From positions 66,522 through 130,521 of the forward strand of contig JBBQJI010000013.1 of assembly GCA_038325765.1 (NCBI GenBank): DNA of 64,000 nucleotides, written 5' to 3'. Below, piece after piece: positions 13,211 to 48,383 of the stretch. This stretch comes from Nannocystales bacterium (GTDB lineage Bacteria > Myxococcota_A > Polyangia > Nannocystales > Nannocystaceae). Both the position numbers and the translations under genes were made by a program. Positions within the stretch are counted from its first letter, which is position 1. Each line of letters opens with the position of its first letter. The notes below the pieces were generated by a model. It saw nothing but the letters and a program-made list of their open reading frames with translations, was not told the origin of the DNA and made no database searches.

Positions 13211-13252
13211 CGTGATCAGCCCGTGATCAGCCCGTGATCAGCCCGTGATCAG
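13211..13252. repeat. 11-bp tandem repeat (cgtgatcagcc) x3.8
   Basis: Direct reading of the sequence. Each unit carries the palindrome TGATCA. It lies in the convergent gap between the rhomboid and yggX genes and is followed by a 10-bp duplication aggcgcga(ct/tc). Confidence 0.9.
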
Positions 13253-13268
13253 GCGCGACTAGGCGCGA

Positions 13269-13583
13269 TCAGGCGGCCGGCGTGCCGCCCTCGCCGCCCT
13301 CGCCGCCGTCGGTGGGCTTCCAGGCAGTCGACGCCAACTCGCCCTGGTCGAACCCGAAGTACACGCGCATCTGCTGGCGCAGGAACTCCTTGCCCTTGTC
13401 GGTCTGCAGATCGACACCGTAGGTGTTGATGTAGCGCGGCGACTCCTTGAGCCACATCTGCCACGCCTGGAGGCTGACCTTGTCGTAGAGTTCCTGACCG
13501 AACGAATCGGTGAAGGGACGGAACGGCAGGCCGGGCAGCTCCTGCTCGAGCTTCTTGCAGAACACCATGCGCGGCTGGTTCAT
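13269..13583 (-). CDS. yggX: Fe(2+)-trafficking / oxidative-damage protection protein YggX family
   Basis: MNQPRMVFCKKLEQELPGL...PGELGQ-like segment, LYDKVSLQAWQMWLKESPRYINTY and LRQQMRVYF are typical of YggX. Start at ATG 13583. Confidence 0.8.
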   Translation of the reverse strand: MNQPRMVFCKKLEQELPGLPFRPFTDSFGQELYDKVSLQAWQMWLKESPRYINTYGVDLQTDKGKEFLRQQMRVYFGFDQGELASTAWKPTDGGEGGEGGTPAA

Positions 13584-13670: not shown

Positions 13671-13726
13671 CTCCGTCCTTCCTGGGGGACCGGGCCGGCC
13701 CCCTCCCAATCGCTCTCGCTCTCTCA
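13671..13726 (-). repeat. Short inverted copy of the REP-like element seen at 47439..47690
   Basis: The reverse complement reads TGAGAGAGCGAGAGCGATTGGGAGGGGGCCGGCCCGGTCCCCCAGGAAGGACGGAG. It starts at the glyQS stop codon and matches the ends of the 47.4-kb unit, but lacks the first hairpin. Confidence 0.75.
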
Positions 13727-15313
13727 GGCCTCGGCGAGGGCCTTGCGCACCACGTCGAGCGCAGTGCCGATCGGGATGCGCACCTGGCTGCGATCGTCGC
13801 GATTGCGCAGGGTCACGGTGCGATCCTCGAGCGTCTGGGTGTCCACGGTGATCGCGTAGGGCGTGCCGATCTCGTCGTGGCGCGCGTAGCGGCGACCGAT
13901 GGCGTGCTGCTCGTCGTACTTGGCGTTGATGCCGGCGGCGAGGAACGACGCGACGATCTCGCGGGCGACCTCGGGCATGCCGTCCTTCTTGACCAGGGGC
14001 AAGATCGCGGCCTTGATCGGCGCCAGCCGTGGGTGTAGCCGCAGCACGGTGCGCCCGCCCTTGCCCTCGGCATCAGCGGGCTCCTCGGCGTAGGCGTCGC
14101 AGAGCAGCGCGAGCAGGCCGCGCGTCGCACCGGCGGCGGGCTCGATGACGTGCGGCATGATGTGCCAACCCGTCTTGCCGGTCTCCGGATCGGTGGCCTC
14201 CTGATCGAACAGGGTGAGCTTCTTGCCGGACTCGCGGCTATGCGCGTCGAGATCGTAGTCGGTGCGGCTGGCGACGCCCTCGAGCTCGTCCCAACCCCAC
14301 GGGAACAGGTACTCGATGTCGTAGCAGCCGTCGCTGTAGTGGGCGAGCTCGTCCGGGCCGTGGGGGCGCAGCCGCAGGTTCTCGGGGCGGATGCCGAGCG
14401 ACGTCCACCAGCGCAGGCGCTCGTTCTTCCAGTACTCGAGCCACTTGGGGCCTTCGCCTGGCATCACGAAGAACTCCATTTCCATCTGCTCGAACTCGCA
14501 GGAGCGGAAGATGAACTTCTCGACCTTGACCTCGTTGCGGAAGCTCTTGCCCATCTGGGCGATTCCAAACGGCAGCTTGAGACCCATGCTCTGCTGCACG
14601 TTGAGGAAGTTGACGAACATCGCCTGCGCGGTCTCGGGGCGCAGATAGACGGCGCTCTCGGCCACCGCCGCGTCTACGCGGCTGCGCAAGGTGGCGTCGT
14701 CGACACCTTCGGCGAGGGCGCGGCGCACGACGTCGACCATGTCGCCGACCGGATCGACGGGGCCGAGGTTGGTGCGGAACATCAGGTTGAACTGGCGTTC
14801 GTCGCTGAGAAACGGCGAGCCGCAGTTGGGGCACGCGTAGCCGCGCGGATCACCGAAGGCGCCGCGGAGGTCCTTGCCGTCTCTGGTGAGCGTGACGCCG
14901 AGCGTCTTCTCGGCGCGCTCGAGCGCGGTCTTGGCCCGCTCTTTGTCGGCGAGGGTGATCGGCGCCGGGCTGCCGGGCTCGAGGCGCGGGGCCTTGTCGG
15001 CACGGAAGCGCTCGCCGCAGAGCTTGCAGTCGACCAGCGGGTCCGAAAAGTTGGCGAGGTGGCCGCTGGCCTGCCACACGCGCGGATGCATGATGATCGA
15101 CGCGTCGATGCCGACGATGTCCTCGCGCGCATGCACCATCGCTCGCCACCACTCGGCCATCAGGTTGCGCTTGAGCTCGGCGCCCATAGGGCCGTAGTCG
15201 TAGGCGCTGCGCAGGCCGCCGTAGATCTCCGAGCTCTGGAACACGAAGCCGCGTCGCTTGCACAGCGAGACGACCTTCTGCAGCGTATCGGTGGACTCGG
15301 CAGCCTGCGACAT
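13724..15313 (-). CDS. glyQS: Glycine--tRNA ligase (dimeric class II GlyQS type)
   Basis: VVSLCKRRGFVFQSSEIYGGLRSAYDYGPMG and the RPETAQ and FRNE motifs. The full length of 529 aa is typical. Confidence 0.93.
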   Translation of the reverse strand: MSQAAESTDTLQKVVSLCKRRGFVFQSSEIYGGLRSAYDYGPMGAELKRNLMAEWWRAMVHAREDIVGIDASIIMHPRVWQASGHLANFSDPLVDCKLCGERFRADKAPRLEPGSPAPITLADKERAKTALERAEKTLGVTLTRDGKDLRGAFGDPRGYACPNCGSPFLSDERQFNLMFRTNLGPVDPVGDMVDVVRRALAEGVDDATLRSRVDAAVAESAVYLRPETAQAMFVNFLNVQQSMGLKLPFGIAQMGKSFRNEVKVEKFIFRSCEFEQMEMEFFVMPGEGPKWLEYWKNERLRWWTSLGIRPENLRLRPHGPDELAHYSDGCYDIEYLFPWGWDELEGVASRTDYDLDAHSRESGKKLTLFDQEATDPETGKTGWHIMPHVIEPAAGATRGLLALLCDAYAEEPADAEGKGGRTVLRLHPRLAPIKAAILPLVKKDGMPEVAREIVASFLAAGINAKYDEQHAIGRRYARHDEIGTPYAITVDTQTLEDRTVTLRNRDDRSQVRIPIGTALDVVRKALAEA

Positions 15314-46125: not shown

Positions 46126-47436
46126 ATGGACGACAGACACGAGGCGATCGCACAGGCGGCCCGGGCCGCGCGCCGGGCGGGTTGGATCCTCGGCCAGATC
46201 GGCGGCCCCGAGCGCCGCCAGATCCTGCTGGCGATGGGCGACCTGCTCGAGCGACCCGATCTGCGCGGCGCCGTACTGCGGGCCAACGCCCTCGATGTCG
46301 AGGTCGCCGAGGCCGCCCGTCTTCGCGGTGAGTTCGGCCAGGCCCTCGTCGACCGCCTGGTGCTCGACGAGCGCAAGCTCGCGGGCGTGATCGACGGCCT
46401 GCGCCAGCTCGCGTCGCAGGCCGATCCGCTCGGCAAGGTCGCGGTCGACCGCGACCTGGACGATGGCCTACACCTGCGCCGCGTCGCCTGCCCGCTCGGC
46501 GTCGTGGCGGTGGTCTTCGAGGCCCGCCCCGACGCGGTGGTGCAGATCGCCGGGCTCGCCGTGCGCAGCGGCAACGCGGTGGTGCTCAAGGGTGGGCGCG
46601 AGGCCGCCCGCACCAACGCGGCGCTGGTCGAGATCCTGCGCCGCGCCGTGGCCGACCAGGGCTTCGATCCGGGCGCGCTGGTCCTGCTCGAGGATCGCGC
46701 CGACGTCGCCGTCATGCTCACGCTCGAGCGCGACATCGATCTCGTGGTCGCGCGCGGATCGTCGGAGTTCGTCCGCCACATCCGCGAAGTCAGCCGCATC
46801 CCCGTGCTCGCCCACGCCGAGGGCGTGTGTCACCTCGTGCTGCACGGCAGCGCCGATCCGACGATGGCCGCGCGCATCGCCGTCGACGCCAAGTGTGCCT
46901 ACCCGGCGGCCTGCAACGCGATCGAGACCCTGCTGTGGATGCCCGGGGCCGAGGCTGCGCTCGATGCATGCGTCGCCGCGCTGCTGGCCCAGGGCGTCGA
47001 GCTGCGGGCATGCGCAGAGACCCTCGCCCGCCATCCCCAACTCGTCGCCGCGGGCGCCGGCGATTTCGGCCACGAGTTCGGCGCGAAGATCCTCGCCATC
47101 GCCCGCACGGGCGATCTCGCCGGCGCGCTCGCGCACGTCGAGCAGCACGGCTCGGGCCACACCGACGCGATCATCGCCGACGACGACACGGCGGCGGCCG
47201 AGTTCCTCGCCCGCGTCGACGCGGCCTGCGTGTTCCACAACGCGAGCACGCGCTTTGCCGACGGCTATCGGTTCGGGCTCGGCGCCGAGGTCGGCATCAG
47301 CACCACCAAACTCCATGCCCGTGGCCCGGTCGGCGCCGAGGGGCTGGTCACCTATCGCTGGTTGTTGCGCGGCACCGGACAGATCGCCGGCGACTACGGC
47401 CCCGGACTGCGGCGGTTCAAGCACCGCGACCGCTGA
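46126..47436 (+). CDS. proA: Gamma-glutamyl phosphate reductase
   Basis: Aldehyde-dehydrogenase-like protein with VVLKGGREA, catalytic-Cys region AACNAIETLL, and GHTDAI. Confidence 0.93.
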   Translation: MDDRHEAIAQAARAARRAGWILGQIGGPERRQILLAMGDLLERPDLRGAVLRANALDVEVAEAARLRGEFGQALVDRLVLDERKLAGVIDGLRQLASQADPLGKVAVDRDLDDGLHLRRVACPLGVVAVVFEARPDAVVQIAGLAVRSGNAVVLKGGREAARTNAALVEILRRAVADQGFDPGALVLLEDRADVAVMLTLERDIDLVVARGSSEFVRHIREVSRIPVLAHAEGVCHLVLHGSADPTMAARIAVDAKCAYPAACNAIETLLWMPGAEAALDACVAALLAQGVELRACAETLARHPQLVAAGAGDFGHEFGAKILAIARTGDLAGALAHVEQHGSGHTDAIIADDDTAAAEFLARVDAACVFHNASTRFADGYRFGLGAEVGISTTKLHARGPVGAEGLVTYRWLLRGTGQIAGDYGPGLRRFKHRDR

Positions 47437-47438
47437 GA

Positions 47439-47690
47439 GAGCGACAGCGACAGCGACTGGGAGGGGGAAGGTTCCGCCGGGCTTTGCCCGGCGGAAGGGG
47501 GACCGGGCCGGTCCCCCAGAAGGACGGAGCGACAGCGACTGGAAGGGGCAAGGTTCCGCCGGGCTTTGCCCGGTGGAAGGGCGACCGGGCCGGTCCCCCA
47601 GAAGGACGGAGCGACAGCGACTGGGAGGGGCAAGGTTCCGCCGGGCTTTGCCCGGTGGAAGGGGGACCGGGCCGGTCCCCCAGAAGGACG
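47439..47690. repeat. Three tandem 82-88 bp REP-like units, each with two GC hairpins
   Basis: Units at 47439-47526, 47527-47608 and 47609-47690. Each contains ttccgccgggc-ttt-gcccggcggaa and gggggaccgg-g-ccggtccccc. The array starts 3 nt after the proA stop. A degenerate fourth segment with hairpin ccgcggaggc-gaa-gcccccgcgg follows, to about 47750. Confidence 0.9.
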
Positions 47691-47771
47691 GAGCCGAGGA
47701 GCGCAGCGACGGAGGGAGCGTCGGGCCGCGGAGGCGAAGCCCCCGCGGTGCCCGTGTCCACCCGCCCCGCG

Positions 47772-48140
47772 TTACGTGGGCAGCACCTCGGTGATCCGCA
47801 GGTTGGATCCCGACGTGCTCGGGTTGTGCCGCTCGACGTACGACTGCAGCTGCCGCTGCGCGGCACTGAAGGCGTCCCGTAGGGCGATGCCCATGTCCTC
47901 GTGCTCGGAGATCTGCGGATCGCGGGTCACGACGATCTCGTCACCAGGGACGGAGAGCTCGATCCGCACGTGGTACGTGTTGCCCTTGTGGTGATGCTTG
48001 TGGGGCGACTCGACGACCACCCGGCAGCCGGTGATCTTGTCGAAGAACTTGTCGAGCTTCGCGGCTTTCGCGCGAATCCGTTCTTCGATCTCGTCGGTGC
48101 GGACGACATTGCGGAACGTGATCTCGAGTGGCAGCTTCAT
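47772..48140 (-). CDS. hpf: Ribosome hibernation promoting factor / RaiA (short HPF type)
   Basis: MKLPLEITFRNV...EIEERIRAKAAKLDKFFDKITGCRVVVE...YHVRIELSVPG fits the YfiA/HPF S30AE fold pattern. Start at ATG 48140. Confidence 0.85.
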   Translation of the reverse strand: MKLPLEITFRNVVRTDEIEERIRAKAAKLDKFFDKITGCRVVVESPHKHHHKGNTYHVRIELSVPGDEIVVTRDPQISEHEDMGIALRDAFSAAQRQLQSYVERHNPSTSGSNLRITEVLPT

Positions 48141-48383
48141 TGGCGTTCCTTTCACATCGAGTGCTCGCGCCCACGGTGCGAAGGCACCGCATCACGTCGA
48201 GCCTCGTCATGGTTACACGGCAGGGGCAACCAGGTTTCATGATGAACCATGGTGGTGGCCATCTGCCAGGGAGAAACGTGCGCAGCGGTTGCAGAAGTTT
48301 CTGCGCCGCCGCGGCGTCGTTGCAAAACGGTGTTCGTTCGGCCAGCTGCATCACCGACGCGGCACTGCGTGGGGGGGTTGGGG

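Follow-up and report, generated by a model that had tools for sequence, protein, structure and literature searches.

Short repeats with secondary structure shape the space between bacterial genes, interrupt assemblies and can alter the fate of mRNAs. An array of such repeats begins directly at the stop codon of proA and extends toward the convergent gene hpf in a Nannocystales bacterium, which raises the question of what the repeated unit is and how it came to lie exactly behind a stop codon. The window that was analysed comprises 64,000 nucleotides of one contig of the source MAG (G000; 7.95 Mb, 70.6% GC), and the family was followed from there through the remaining genome and into related genomes of the class Polyangia.

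The proA/hpf array

The sequence-only reading had described tandem double-hairpin units that start at the proA stop. Repeat detection bears this out: Tandem Repeats Finder (TRF) reports positions 47446-47694 as 3.0 copies of an 82-nt period (96% matches, score 470), and a repeat search of the window returned three in-register copies with identities of 95-98% (Table 1). Each unit harbors one 11-bp and one 10-bp hairpin. The two palindromes lie in unit 1 as they had been described, TTCCGCCGGGC/GCCCGGCGGAA at 47472-47482/47486-47496 and GGGGGACCGG/CCGGTCCCCC at 47497-47506/47508-47517, and hairpin 1 of units 2 and 3 contains a G.T pair (GCCCGGTGGAA). The array region is more stably folded than shuffled sequence on both strands (z = -4.3 for the plus and -4.0 for the minus strand). 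The flanking genes had been named correctly as well; the TGA of proA is directly followed by GAGAGCGACAGCGAC, and the hpf product scores under the cut-off of TIGR00741; an exact-match look-up of this protein gave no record. A degenerate fourth hairpin that had been counted as part of the array, at about 47722-47753, is native to the intergenic region, as G006 and G008, which have no element, carry its homologue GGGGTGCGGAGGCCCAACGCCCCGCACCCC in the equivalent position. The stretch before it (47692-47721) resembles a leader remnant and could be either an incomplete fourth unit or spacer sequence of native origin.

Table 1. Features of the proA/hpf region and of the second family member in the window (positions are those of the window; H0, H1 and H2 in the text denote hairpins).
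Feature	Position	Strand	Evidence or remark
Family member lacking hairpin 1	13671..13726	-	starts at TGA of glycine-tRNA ligase (13724-15313, minus strand)
proA, glutamate-5-semialdehyde dehydrogenase	46126..47436	+	NCBIfam NF001221, E = 1e-134; native stop TGA 47434-47436
CTGAG target pentanucleotide, left flank of the element, includes the proA stop	47433..47437	+	left-flank conservation over 66 loci; same in sister family
Leader start (AGAGCGAC)	47438..47445	+	one additional AGCGAC hexamer; TRF: AGCGAC x3 at 47440-47457
Unit 1	47446..47527	+	leader AGCGACAGCGACTGGGAGGGGGAAGG; hairpin 1 47472-47496; hairpin 2 47497-47517; tail AGAAGGACGG
Unit 2	47528..47609	+	hairpin 1 47554-47578; hairpin 2 47579-47599, one mismatch (GGGCGACC)
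Unit 3	47610..47691	+	hairpin 1 47636-47660; hairpin 2 47661-47681
Leader-like remnant or junction (AGCCGAGGAGCGCAGCGACGGAGGGAGCGT)	47692..47721	+	fourth unit here in the L182 assembly
Native proA/hpf intergenic hairpin (GGGCCGCGGAGGCGAAGCCCCCGCGGTGCCC), outside the repeat family	47722..47753	.	homologue in G006 and G008; seen in fold
hpf, HPF/YfiA ribosome hibernation factor family	47772..48155	-	Pfam PF02482, E = 2e-16; stop TAA 47772-47774; convergent with proA

An independent metagenome contig (L182) is 99.5% identical over 1805 nt and shows the array at this proA stop as well, with at least 3.6 units before the contig ends within the array. Hence, the number of units is uncertain, differs between the two assemblies and is polymorphic. 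The head-to-tail junctions are exact joins of a right end to a left end, which read GGACTGAG/AGAGCGAC at a period of 86 and the same without GAGA at a period of 82 (a slash marks the boundary here and below). In the window array, GGACGG/AGCGAC occurs twice and GCGACTGG in all three units. Since the junctions of one array share such private variants, they point toward local amplification.

A dispersed family with fixed boundaries

The proposal that the unit belongs to a family of structured elements dispersed between the genes of the whole genome is supported, with about 95 loci in the source genome: the 108 matches returned by nhmmer fall into 90 loci, to which five decayed or mini copies were added by a motif search. 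The full element is gene-less and measures 86 nt, AGAGCGACAGCGAWTGGGAGGGGGAAGG-H1-H2-CAGAAGGACTGAG, with a purine-rich leader, two GC-rich hairpins (H1 and H2) and a tail that ends in CTGAG. Copies are near-identical among the loci, and about 70 are located inside long contigs with unique flanks. Many copies are also found at contig ends, and many contigs of the MAG end in elements. Matches that cover only the 5' or only the 3' part are all internal deletions and not the ends of a longer element. The second copy that had been noticed in the window, next to the glyQS stop on the minus strand, is real and abuts the TGA; this variant without hairpin 1 recurs at eight or more further loci of the genome.

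Both boundaries are well defined. Across 66 loci, the 5' flank reads C (85%), T (83%), G (91%), A (85%) and G (89%), and the left boundary CTGAGAG/AGCGAC is conserved at 83-97%, with variable sequence upstream of the C. At the right boundary, GGAC is followed by T (71%), G (90%), A (84%) and G (76%), beyond which the sequence varies. Comparison of the 5' end (AGAGCGACAGCGA) with the reverse complement of the 3' end (CTCAGTCCTTCTGG) revealed no terminal inverted repeats in any register. Arrays are exclusively head-to-tail throughout the family; inverted doublets were not found.

An Rfam search of the region matched no family (the best model, M23, scored 19 bits with E = 0.56, where the gathering score is 41.2), and literature searches gave nothing specific on the element sequence or on a comparable myxobacterial repeat. 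When 185k genomes were scanned with the pattern CTGAGAGAGCGNCAGCGA, the matches listed included one clear relative, in a Nannocystaceae MAG, the rest being unrelated repeats and chance matches. The family is an uncatalogued relative of REP/MITE-type repeats.

Placement at stop codons

The unit had also been suspected to be a miniature mobile element with a preference for stop codons, and both parts of this idea are supported, the first by empty orthologous sites in congeners (see below) and the second by the position of the copies. The TGA within the flanking CTGAG serves as the in-frame stop codon of the upstream gene at 54 of 77 loci. This strict call requires an ORF no shorter than 60 codons and a GC3 of at least 0.8; roughly ten additional loci feature long ORFs with a GC3 of 0.7-0.8, which puts the total at 54-65 of the 77. 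Genome-wide, CTGAG occurs 725 times at stops, 1250 times in intergenic and 3021 times in coding sequence, so that a null model based on the target alone places 37% of insertions at stops, which the observed share exceeds (binomial p 2.7e-9). TGA makes up 78% of the credible stops in the genome, and elements occupy about 8% of all CTGAG stop sites.

The orientation is fixed: elements are inserted in one direction relative to the target strand and in the same sense as the upstream gene. Convergent gene ends account for 37 of 84 loci. Relative to local GC skew, the orientation is unbiased (35:30); genes are likewise unbiased, which gives this test low power.

Empty sites and a sister family

For all eight loci of the source genome that were tested, proA among them, each of the orthologous sites located among the 10 congeners is element-free, with the native stop codon in the same position. 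In the case of proA, the orthologues in nine congeners carry TGA at the same position and no element. Such element-free sites with a native TGA identify the copies as recent, oriented insertions. Among the strain-variant contigs within the MAG, no empty sites were seen.

A sister family, referred to as type B, has a length of 133 nt and the organization CTGAG/TTGCGG...H0...leader-H1-H2...TTGGTAG/. It is represented by at least 35 copies in G006 and at least 25 in G008 and is also present in G002, G004, G009 and the source genome. Type B inserts after (C)TGAG, ends in GGTAG and shares the leader/hairpin architecture with the 86-nt family. A pair of orthologous sites, filled in G008 and empty in G006, places the insertion directly after TGAG without duplication of the target. 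The 86-nt family of the source genome has CTGAG at both ends, which is compatible with a duplication of 4-5 bp (CTGA/CTGAG) or with a CTGAG end of its own. Long flanking duplications showed no excess over shuffled pairs in this genome, exceptions being C80:20432 (14 nt exact, or about 17 nt if the neighboring xAG is counted) and C5:212865 (13 nt). Given type B without target duplication and the lack of terminal inverted repeats, insertion 3' of a target, the mode of IS200/IS605 and REP systems, accounts for the pattern better than a classical MITE does. In other Polyangia families, gene-end duplications of 12-45 nt surround homologous modules.

Hairpin conservation and RNA level

The hairpins covary across the class Polyangia, and compensatory change is seen across genus and class, with double changes in 11 of 16 pairs. 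Substitutions are 3.7 times rarer in the stems (2.3%) than in leader, tail and loops (8.4%), which could reflect selection for a host function after insertion instead of pure selfishness. Owing to a G.T pair in the consensus, folding is better for the top strand (-43.3 vs -37.7 kcal/mol). Within the class, the distribution is patchy: elements were found in 24 of 151 genomes and 19 of 92 genera, often with at least 20 copies, and subfamilies differ in how they combine the modules H0, leader, H1, H2 and tail.

The array had been considered as a terminator. This was not borne out, as a U-tract is missing, the tail reads AGAAGGAC, and a promoter/terminator scan returned nothing, with no terminator-like sites in 47200-48000. 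The other role that had been proposed, stabilization of mRNA 3' ends, is putative. Hairpin 1 begins 36 nt past the stop codon, and the range reported for REP-induced ribosome stalling is 15 nt (PMC12306157). At C19:74812, C54:36128, C24:47772 and C59:22225, the AGAAGGA of the tail is located 3-15 nt upstream of the ATG of the next gene. A host benefit, either through 3'-UTR structure or through AGAAGGA as Shine-Dalgarno sequence of the downstream gene, is putative and would be secondary.

Candidate enzymes

The REP-like label of the sequence-only reading implied a RAYT partner, for which no counterpart emerged: Y1_Tnp was not detected in the source genome or in other carriers, and a GTAG- or CGTC-headed REP palindrome is lacking. 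Searches with the Y1_Tnp/RAYT model (PF01797) gave no match in the source genome, G006, G008, G002 and G004, an absence that is weak evidence in MAGs, as holds for all genomes compared. Weak matches were confined to G003, G005, G007 and G010, and their presence does not follow element load. The Y1_Tnp-free G004 is a genome of 10 contigs. TnpB was not found in carrier genomes either. Self-megablast of the source assembly revealed no multi-copy IS, only strain-variant contigs of 90-95% identity, and this absence, too, counts for little in a MAG.

Two other enzyme types are present. IS91-like Y2_Tnp (PF04986) yielded 10 matches in the source genome (best E = 2e-21) and was detected in 21 of 25 relatives and in none of 14 control genomes; one copy of the source genome spans C31:29552-30979. 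The flanks of the Y2_Tnp copies on G000:C31, G000:C143 and G004:C1 contained no leader, hairpin or CTGAG-bounded ends. IS91-like Y2 proteins are unusually common in the class. In addition, a small GIY-YIG gene (C30:6717-7106 in the source genome) is conserved as a single copy in every genome of the genus, and no element motif was found within 1.5 kb of it in 11 genomes.

Origin of the array

Taken together, the proA array probably derives from one insertion of an 86-nt non-autonomous mobile element that is directed by CTGAG in a strand-specific manner and was amplified locally. The dispersed family with its fixed boundaries, gene-sense orientation and empty orthologous sites supports this directly, as do type B without target duplication, the covarying hairpins and the local amplification of the array. 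Accordingly worded as a sequence of events, a single non-coding element would have inserted at the proA stop, with integration on one strand immediately 3' of CTGAG, and the inserted copy would then have been amplified to at least three head-to-tail units. Insertion would be best tolerated where the TGA is a stop codon, since the gene is not disrupted there and the element simply adds to the 3'-UTR or intergenic DNA; copies would accumulate on stop codons for this reason. We infer that the element may move as a folded single strand, cut and joined by a nuclease that acts in trans and recognizes the hairpins together with the xxxAG motifs at the ends. Such a route would work on the principle known from IS200/IS605, REP and other HUH-type elements.

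The same right-hand CTGAG could instead be a duplication left by an IS5-like (IS1031/IS427, TNA target) or similar DDE transposase after a staggered cut at TGA/CTGA(G), which would turn the family into a classical MITE. Both ends of the 86-nt family read CTGAG, and at C19:74812 the 3' copy is CTGA, directly followed by the ATG of the next gene, as expected for a duplication of 3-4 bp. Nevertheless, this origin is unlikely in view of the missing terminal inverted repeats, the single orientation relative to the target strand, the lack of a multi-copy IS in the assembly, and type B, which shares the left target, terminates in GGTAG and has no duplication in its filled/empty pair. A REP/BIME or REPIN system whose single-copy RAYT (TnpA-REP) was missed by the MAG assemblies would account for abundant short extragenic hairpins in mosaic modular arrays near stops, comparable to GTAG REPs (PMC3733652), and could refer to the weak Y1_Tnp homologues in some congeners (G003, G005 and G010). 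We regard it as distinctly improbable, because PF01797 is absent from the five element-richest genomes, including G004 with its 10 contigs, Y1_Tnp does not track element load, and inverted REP doublets are absent; moreover, the conserved end motif lies 3' of the hairpin, at a distance of about 8-12 nt, and there is no 5' GTAG/CGTC head.

If the elements were instead host-selected 3'-UTR RNA modules, be it as exonuclease barrier, terminator, device for ribosome release or re-initiation, or Shine-Dalgarno donor, their position at stops would itself be the function. The sense orientation behind stop codons, the 3.7-fold better conservation of the stems, the better folding of the top strand, which corresponds to the RNA, the AGAAGGA tail near the next ATG at several loci and the 37 of 84 convergent ends would suit such modules. 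All eight tested loci are lineage-specific insertions, though, the copies of the family are near-identical, U-tract terminator and Rfam family are lacking, and hairpin 1 at 36 nt is outside the 15-nt range of REP stalling (PMC12306157), which makes this explanation very improbable. As the primary explanation, an RNA role fails; it may have been added by exaptation. It is scarcely credible that the array is a collapsed or chimeric repeat of a short-read MAG. Many copies at contig ends and the unit number that differs between two assemblies would be in line with such an artefact, but the independent metagenome contig (99.5%) has the same array at the proA stop, and about 70 copies reside within long contigs between unique flanks.

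Beyond the insertion itself, the observations might be joined into one more speculative reading, to which we assign a low though appreciable probability. Here, transposition would be independent of RAYT/TnpA, and a trans-acting nuclease new to transposition, with IS91-like Y2 and small GIY-YIG as candidates, would paste the folded single strand behind CTGAG. The commonest stop context of a high-GC genome would serve as safe harbor, the element's own Shine-Dalgarno tail would permit stop/start junctions, and the gene-end duplications of 12-45 nt could represent a second outcome of the machinery.

Relation to known systems

Miniature elements derived from IS200/IS605 (PATEs) follow a "peel-and-paste" single-strand mechanism. 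The features by which they are recognized, namely oriented insertion 3' of a 4-5-nt target, subterminal hairpins and the lack of target duplications and terminal inverted repeats, are found here as well: orientation 3' of CTGAG is strict, and the lack of a target duplication is seen in the sister family. As in PATEs, the right end finishes in a target-like motif (CTGAG or GGTAG) and is itself usable as target, which yields head-to-tail arrays. Unlike PATEs, the two hairpins are dissimilar, and carriers possess no Y1 transposase or TnpB.

Chunjie of Geobacter is an example of a bacterial MITE that is tolerated inside operons. With bacterial MITEs such as Correia, ERIC and RUP, the family shares small size, non-coding nature and dispersal (PMC2229807, PMC10969869). 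Like these, it is co-transcribed with its neighbors, and some copies give the next gene a Shine-Dalgarno-like sequence. Terminal inverted repeats are absent, in contrast to MITEs, and target-site duplication is not seen in the sister family; a parent IS with the same ends was not found in the source genome, which is weak evidence in a MAG.

High copy number of extragenic hairpins, modular mosaics, contact with stop codons and lineage-specific bursts are common to the present family and REP/BIME/REPIN sequences (PMC2817692, PMC3733652, PMC6006769). Yet, REPs measure 20-40 nt, whereas the units described here span 86-133 nt, contain two or three dissimilar hairpins, have a fixed target and a fixed orientation to the upstream gene, and lack the GTAG/CGTC head and inverted doublets; no RAYT was found in their carriers. 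The GTAG of type B is situated at the 3' terminus.

Neither textbook class is suitable, be it MITEs with terminal inverted repeats and target duplication or REPs with a RAYT. A family outside both that is nevertheless patchily spread over many Polyangia families and has covarying hairpins marks a mobilization mechanism still to be found. It also exemplifies clean avoidance of harm by selfish DNA, as the target pentanucleotide includes the dominant stop codon. In practical terms, recent, datable insertion polymorphisms and VNTR-like arrays could be used for strain typing of uncultured myxobacteria.

A further parallel is provided by the Ssn (GIY-YIG) nucleases, small single-copy enzymes that recognize abundant SRM/NTS hairpin repeats as single-stranded DNA (Chenal et al. 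2025, PMC11893778). The genomes of the genus resemble this system in their abundant hairpin repeats and in the one small GIY-YIG gene that each of them has. In contrast to Ssn/SRM, the elements have no GTCWY head, and the GIY-YIG gene is not flanked by elements. Transposition of these repeats by Ssn is not known. The 18-mer CTGAGAGAGCGACAGCGA also occurs within GTCAT-headed SRM-like repeats of Planctomycetota MAGs.

The proA/hpf array and its repeat family

The gap between the convergent genes proA and that of an HPF-family protein holds three near-identical head-to-tail units, as a sequence-only reading had proposed: TRF reported a period of 82 with 3.0 copies, 96% matches and a score of 470, and a repeat search of the window placed the three copies in register at 95–98% identity, recovering both of the hairpins postulated for each unit, H1 and H2. 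The proposed contact with proA is also confirmed, its TGA (47434-47436) running directly into GAGAGCGACAGCGAC. Folding, which had been recommended as a check, found the region more stable than shuffled sequence (z = -4.3 and -4.0). A promoter and terminator scan of the region gave no sigma-70-like promoter and no U-tract terminator, the latter speaking against the suggested terminator role, and the region has no Rfam match. A second member had been claimed to abut the stop of glyQS, the glycine-tRNA ligase gene, and it does, though without H1; in a motif search, this copy and the array were the only family loci in the window. Beyond this mini element and roughly 400 nt downstream from the glyQS stop lies a perfect 11-bp tandem repeat (CGTGATCAGCC, 3.8 copies), with more short repeats at 13247-13311.

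Window features and architecture of the repeat units
Feature	Position	Strand	Details
11-bp tandem repeat	13211-13252		
Second family copy	13671-13726	-	Without H1; starts at glycine-tRNA ligase TGA
Glycine-tRNA ligase gene	13724-15313	-	NF003211, E = 1e-175
proA	46126-47436	+	NF001221, E = 1e-134
Repeat array	47446-47694		Between proA and HPF-family gene
Hairpin after array	47722-47753		Native spacer
HPF-family gene	47772-48155	-	PF02482
H1 of each unit			TTCCGCCGGGC-TTT-GCCCGG(C/T)GGAA
H2 of each unit			GGGGGACCGG-G-CCGGTCCCCC
Type B unit			CTGAG, then TTGCGGATGAACGC-GAA-GCGTTCACCCGCGAC (H0), GAAGGCAAG GAGCGAAGCGATGG..., H1, H2, CATTGCTTGGTAG, end

That the units belong to a genome-wide family of structured elements is borne out by an iterated nhmmer profile, which found 108 matches in 90 loci of the source assembly (7.95 Mb, 252 contigs, 70.6% G+C), i. 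e. 77 single copies, nine doublets, three triplets and one quadruplet, with many matches at contig ends; a motif search added five decayed or mini copies. Alignment of the copies of this family (type A) with their flanks revealed, on the left, variable sequence followed by C (85%) TGAGAG and AGCGAC, and on the right CAGAAGGAC followed by T (71%) G (90%) A (84%) G (76%) and again variable sequence, with no terminal inverted repeats. The full unit of 86 nt (AGAGCGACAGCGAWTGGGAGGGGGAAGG-H1-H2-CAGAAGGACTGAG) invariably stands behind CTGAG. Variants without H1, including the glyQS copy, are recurrent and can be explained by a deletion between two GGAAGG motifs, one ahead of H1 and one ahead of H2. 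Flanking duplications were clear at only two of 82 loci checked, C80:20432 (contig and position), with 17 nt (CGCGCGTGACGTCT plus xAG) on either side of the copy, and C5:212865 (13 nt). Many short contigs are 90–95% identical to parts of larger ones (C138 versus C1, C227 versus C240), and the MAG is probably a mix of closely related strains. At C60:39198-39402, low-GC sequence (ggatattccagatagtggcgtttatattaaaccaaaacataaaggat) directly follows an element copy up to the contig end, suggesting a chimeric join or contaminating sequence where the repeat broke the assembly.

When thirteen sequences representing six genera of the class were aligned, RNAalifold recovered both hairpins with 16 pairs, 11 of them with compensatory double changes. 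A G.T pair in the consensus H1 favours folding of the top strand, which corresponds to the upstream gene's sense strand, over that of the other (-43.3 versus -37.7 kcal/mol). Among 58 full-length copies of the source genome, substitutions reach 2.3% in the stems versus 8.4% in leader, tail and loops, and the stem changes are almost all one-sided. This conservation fits equally well a structure required for mobility, with recent copies stemming from few masters, or selection on each copy.

Insertion behind native stop codons

Searches with the final 250 nt of each upstream gene allowed ten loci to be compared on both flanks with ten other genomes of the genus. At the eight loci with recognisable orthologues (proA, C19:74812, C54:36128, C24:47772, C36:47833, C4:139814, C10:136955 and C40:56895), the element is absent from every relative, and the orthologue's own stop, nearly always TGA, is found at the same position. 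At the C40 site, for example, the congeners G006 and G008 read cccTGAGcc and cccTGAGtt, and the source genome cccCTGAG-element-TCCG. Their proA genes end in cgtTGAGgg and cgcTGACgg, respectively, with the hairpin GGGGTGCGGAGGCCCAACGCCCCGCACCCC about 35 nt further on. This hairpin of element-free genomes corresponds to 47722-47753, and what had been taken for a degenerate fourth hairpin of the array is thus native spacer. In these alignments, the stop codon is native and the element lineage-specific, with entry exactly behind TGA(G).

Besides these empty sites, the earlier suggestion of a miniature mobile element with a preference for stop-adjacent sites is upheld by the TGA of CTGAG being an in-frame ORF stop at 54 of 77 loci with readable left end (ORFs with a minimum of 60 codons and GC3 of 0.8 or higher); long in-frame ORFs with GC3 of 0.7–0.8 are seen at about ten more loci. 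As a null model, every CTGAG of the genome was classified by ORFs of at least 80 codons and GC3 of at least 0.8, which placed 725 on credible stops, 1250 in intergenic DNA and 3021 inside coding ORFs. Random hits on CTGAG with coding insertions purged would thus put 37% of the elements on stops, compared to the observed 70% (p = 2.7e-9). The target motif, together with purging of gene-disrupting insertions, explains much of the stop-codon pattern, and the remaining, roughly two-fold excess at gene 3' ends would be accounted for if insertions into 5' regulatory DNA were selected against more strongly. About 8% of the CTGAG stop sites are occupied; of the downstream neighbours, 47 are co-directional and 37 convergent according to a rough gene caller. 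Occupied sites have C before TGA in 85% of cases, and the orthologous empty sites of sister species often have G or T (three of four G008/G006 pairs, as well as proA, C36, C4, C24 and C54). The difference could stem from a strict requirement for the target that acts at synonymous third codon positions, or have another cause.

A sister family and the element ends

BLAST and a covariance model uncovered, within the genus, diverged relatives that keep this architecture and differ in their hairpin sequences. The best populated of these, type B, measures 133 nt and carries an extra hairpin, H0, which covaries between G008 and G004. G006 has no fewer than 35 copies and G008 no fewer than 25; type B also occurs in G002, G009, G004, G005 and G010, with few copies in the source genome. 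Its left flank is (C)TGAG, coinciding with a conserved gene's stop at 5/5 loci examined, and its right end GGTAG passes into unrelated sequence. The cleanest pair, filled in G008 (...ttcacCTGAG-133 nt-GCCGGCCGGTCGG...) and empty in G006 (...ttcacGTGAGCGCCGTCG...), shows insertion of type B directly after TGAG without duplication of the target. For type A alone, a terminal CTGAG belonging to the element and a target duplication predict identical sequence. Since leader, H1/H2 plan and target are common to both types, the 3' CTGAG of type A may be read as the element's own end. Tandem repeats of about 25 nt (gcgatcgagcggcgcgacgatcccc) lie directly upstream of one diverged family member (L003, on contig 205 of G008).

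Local amplification

Arrays with a period of 86 show exact right-end/left-end junctions, GGACTGAG-to-AGAGCGAC, on contigs C71 (three times), C24, C45, C72 and C78. Those with a period of 82, found on C2 (twice), C4, C15 and C39 and in the window, instead read GGAC(T/A/G)G then AGCGAC, i. e. the former junction minus GAGA within a (GA)n run. Junctions and private variants are common to the units of one array: both window junctions read GGACGG then AGCGAC, and in each of its three units GCGACTGG replaces the GCGA(A/T)(T/C)GG of other copies. The array in the window thus grew from one insertion that was amplified locally, and not from three hits. It recurs on an independent contig of a JGI metagenome (Ga0105045_10164781; 99.5% identity over 1805 nt), where 3.6 or more units show another mosaic of variants and the contig breaks off within the array. 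The proA array is polymorphic, with an uncertain length in the MAG.

Distribution

A covariance model built on the leader-H1-H2 core was run on 151 genomes sampled from the class and matched 24 of them, spread over 12 or more families and 19 of 92 genera, often with at least 29 matches per positive genome; it had no matches in other genera of the window's own family. Such patchy occurrence in bursts is what mobile DNA would be expected to show. One clear outside relative, a MAG labelled Nannocystaceae, was among the pattern-scan matches listed. In distant families, the core is embedded otherwise, with a leader GCGCGGCGCGG...GGTGGGGGGAGG and a tail CCCCC-TGA.... Several of these distant copies (L257, L258, L260 [genome G047], L261 [G122] and L271 [G089]) lie between direct repeats of 12–45 nt that duplicate the 3' end of the upstream gene with its stop codon and the stop/start junction, for instance gtgatcgtcaaccgcaagcgcgaggaagaaTAG on either side of L258. 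Such long, variable duplications are unexplained by any mechanism considered for the family of the source genome.

An 18-mer, CTGAGAGAGCGACAGCGA, recurs inside abundant repeats of unrelated phyla (L061-L140, from public MAGs). It stands in GGAGCCTGCC-CTGAGAGAGCGACAGCGACCGAAGGGCGCG... in Acidobacteriaceae and Sulfotelmatobacter MAGs, and in GTCATC-CTGAGAGAGCGACAGCGACCGAAGGATCT, with inverted-repeat arms and an SRM-like head, in those of Planctomycetota, WOR-3 and Omnitrophota. Either common descent or a chance match of a low-complexity motif could explain this.

Possible mobilisation and secondary role

A short target on one strand, fixed orientation, subterminal hairpins and the lack of terminal inverted repeats and, in type B, of target-site duplications, as well as a right end (xxxAG) resembling the target and exact right-end/left-end array junctions, suggest that the element would most likely be moved as a single strand by an HUH-type enzyme, like IS200/IS605, REP/RAYT or IS91. 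A classical DDE-type MITE is less likely, and an origin as a home-grown RNA motif is excluded. Its anatomy is like that of all three HUH groups, but on the enzyme the element could be assigned to none of them. The search for a RAYT that had been advised yielded no PF01797 domain (Y1 HUH, IS200/IS605 TnpA and RAYT) in the source genome, G006, G008, G002 or G004 (10 contigs), only weak matches in G003, G005, G007 and G010, and no PF07282 (TnpB) in the whole genus; all genomes except the near-complete G004 are MAGs, so these gene absences are weak evidence. PF04986 (Y2 HUH, IS91-like) has 10 matches in the source genome (best E = 2e-21) and occurs in 21 of 25 sampled class relatives, with up to 15 per genome, versus 0 of 14 control genomes. 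The flanks of the two best copies inspected contain ordinary genes or an integrase and no element-like ends. Many class-wide matches cover just the C-terminal half of the model. Prompted by a paper on Ssn (PMC11893778), GIY-YIG genes were also inspected: besides UvrC, a single small GIY-YIG gene occurs in each of 11 genomes (C30:6717-7106 in the source genome), with no element motif within 1.5 kb of the latter in any of the 11. No multi-copy IS is assembled in the source genome, and the elements are oriented 35:30 with respect to local GC skew.

A literature search found no paper on this family or a myxobacterial equivalent; the element is classed with the small structured non-autonomous mobile repeats, a kind already known. 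A secondary use at the RNA level, as opposed to an origin there, is possible. At several operon-internal loci, the AGAAGGA tail lies 3–15 nt before the next gene's ATG, where it may replace the displaced ribosome-binding site. Contact of REPs with stop codons is already known, GTAG REPs often supplying TAG stops (PMC3733652), and REPs no more than 15 nt from the stop influence translation (PMC12306157). In contrast to the latter, H1 here starts 36 nt after the stop.
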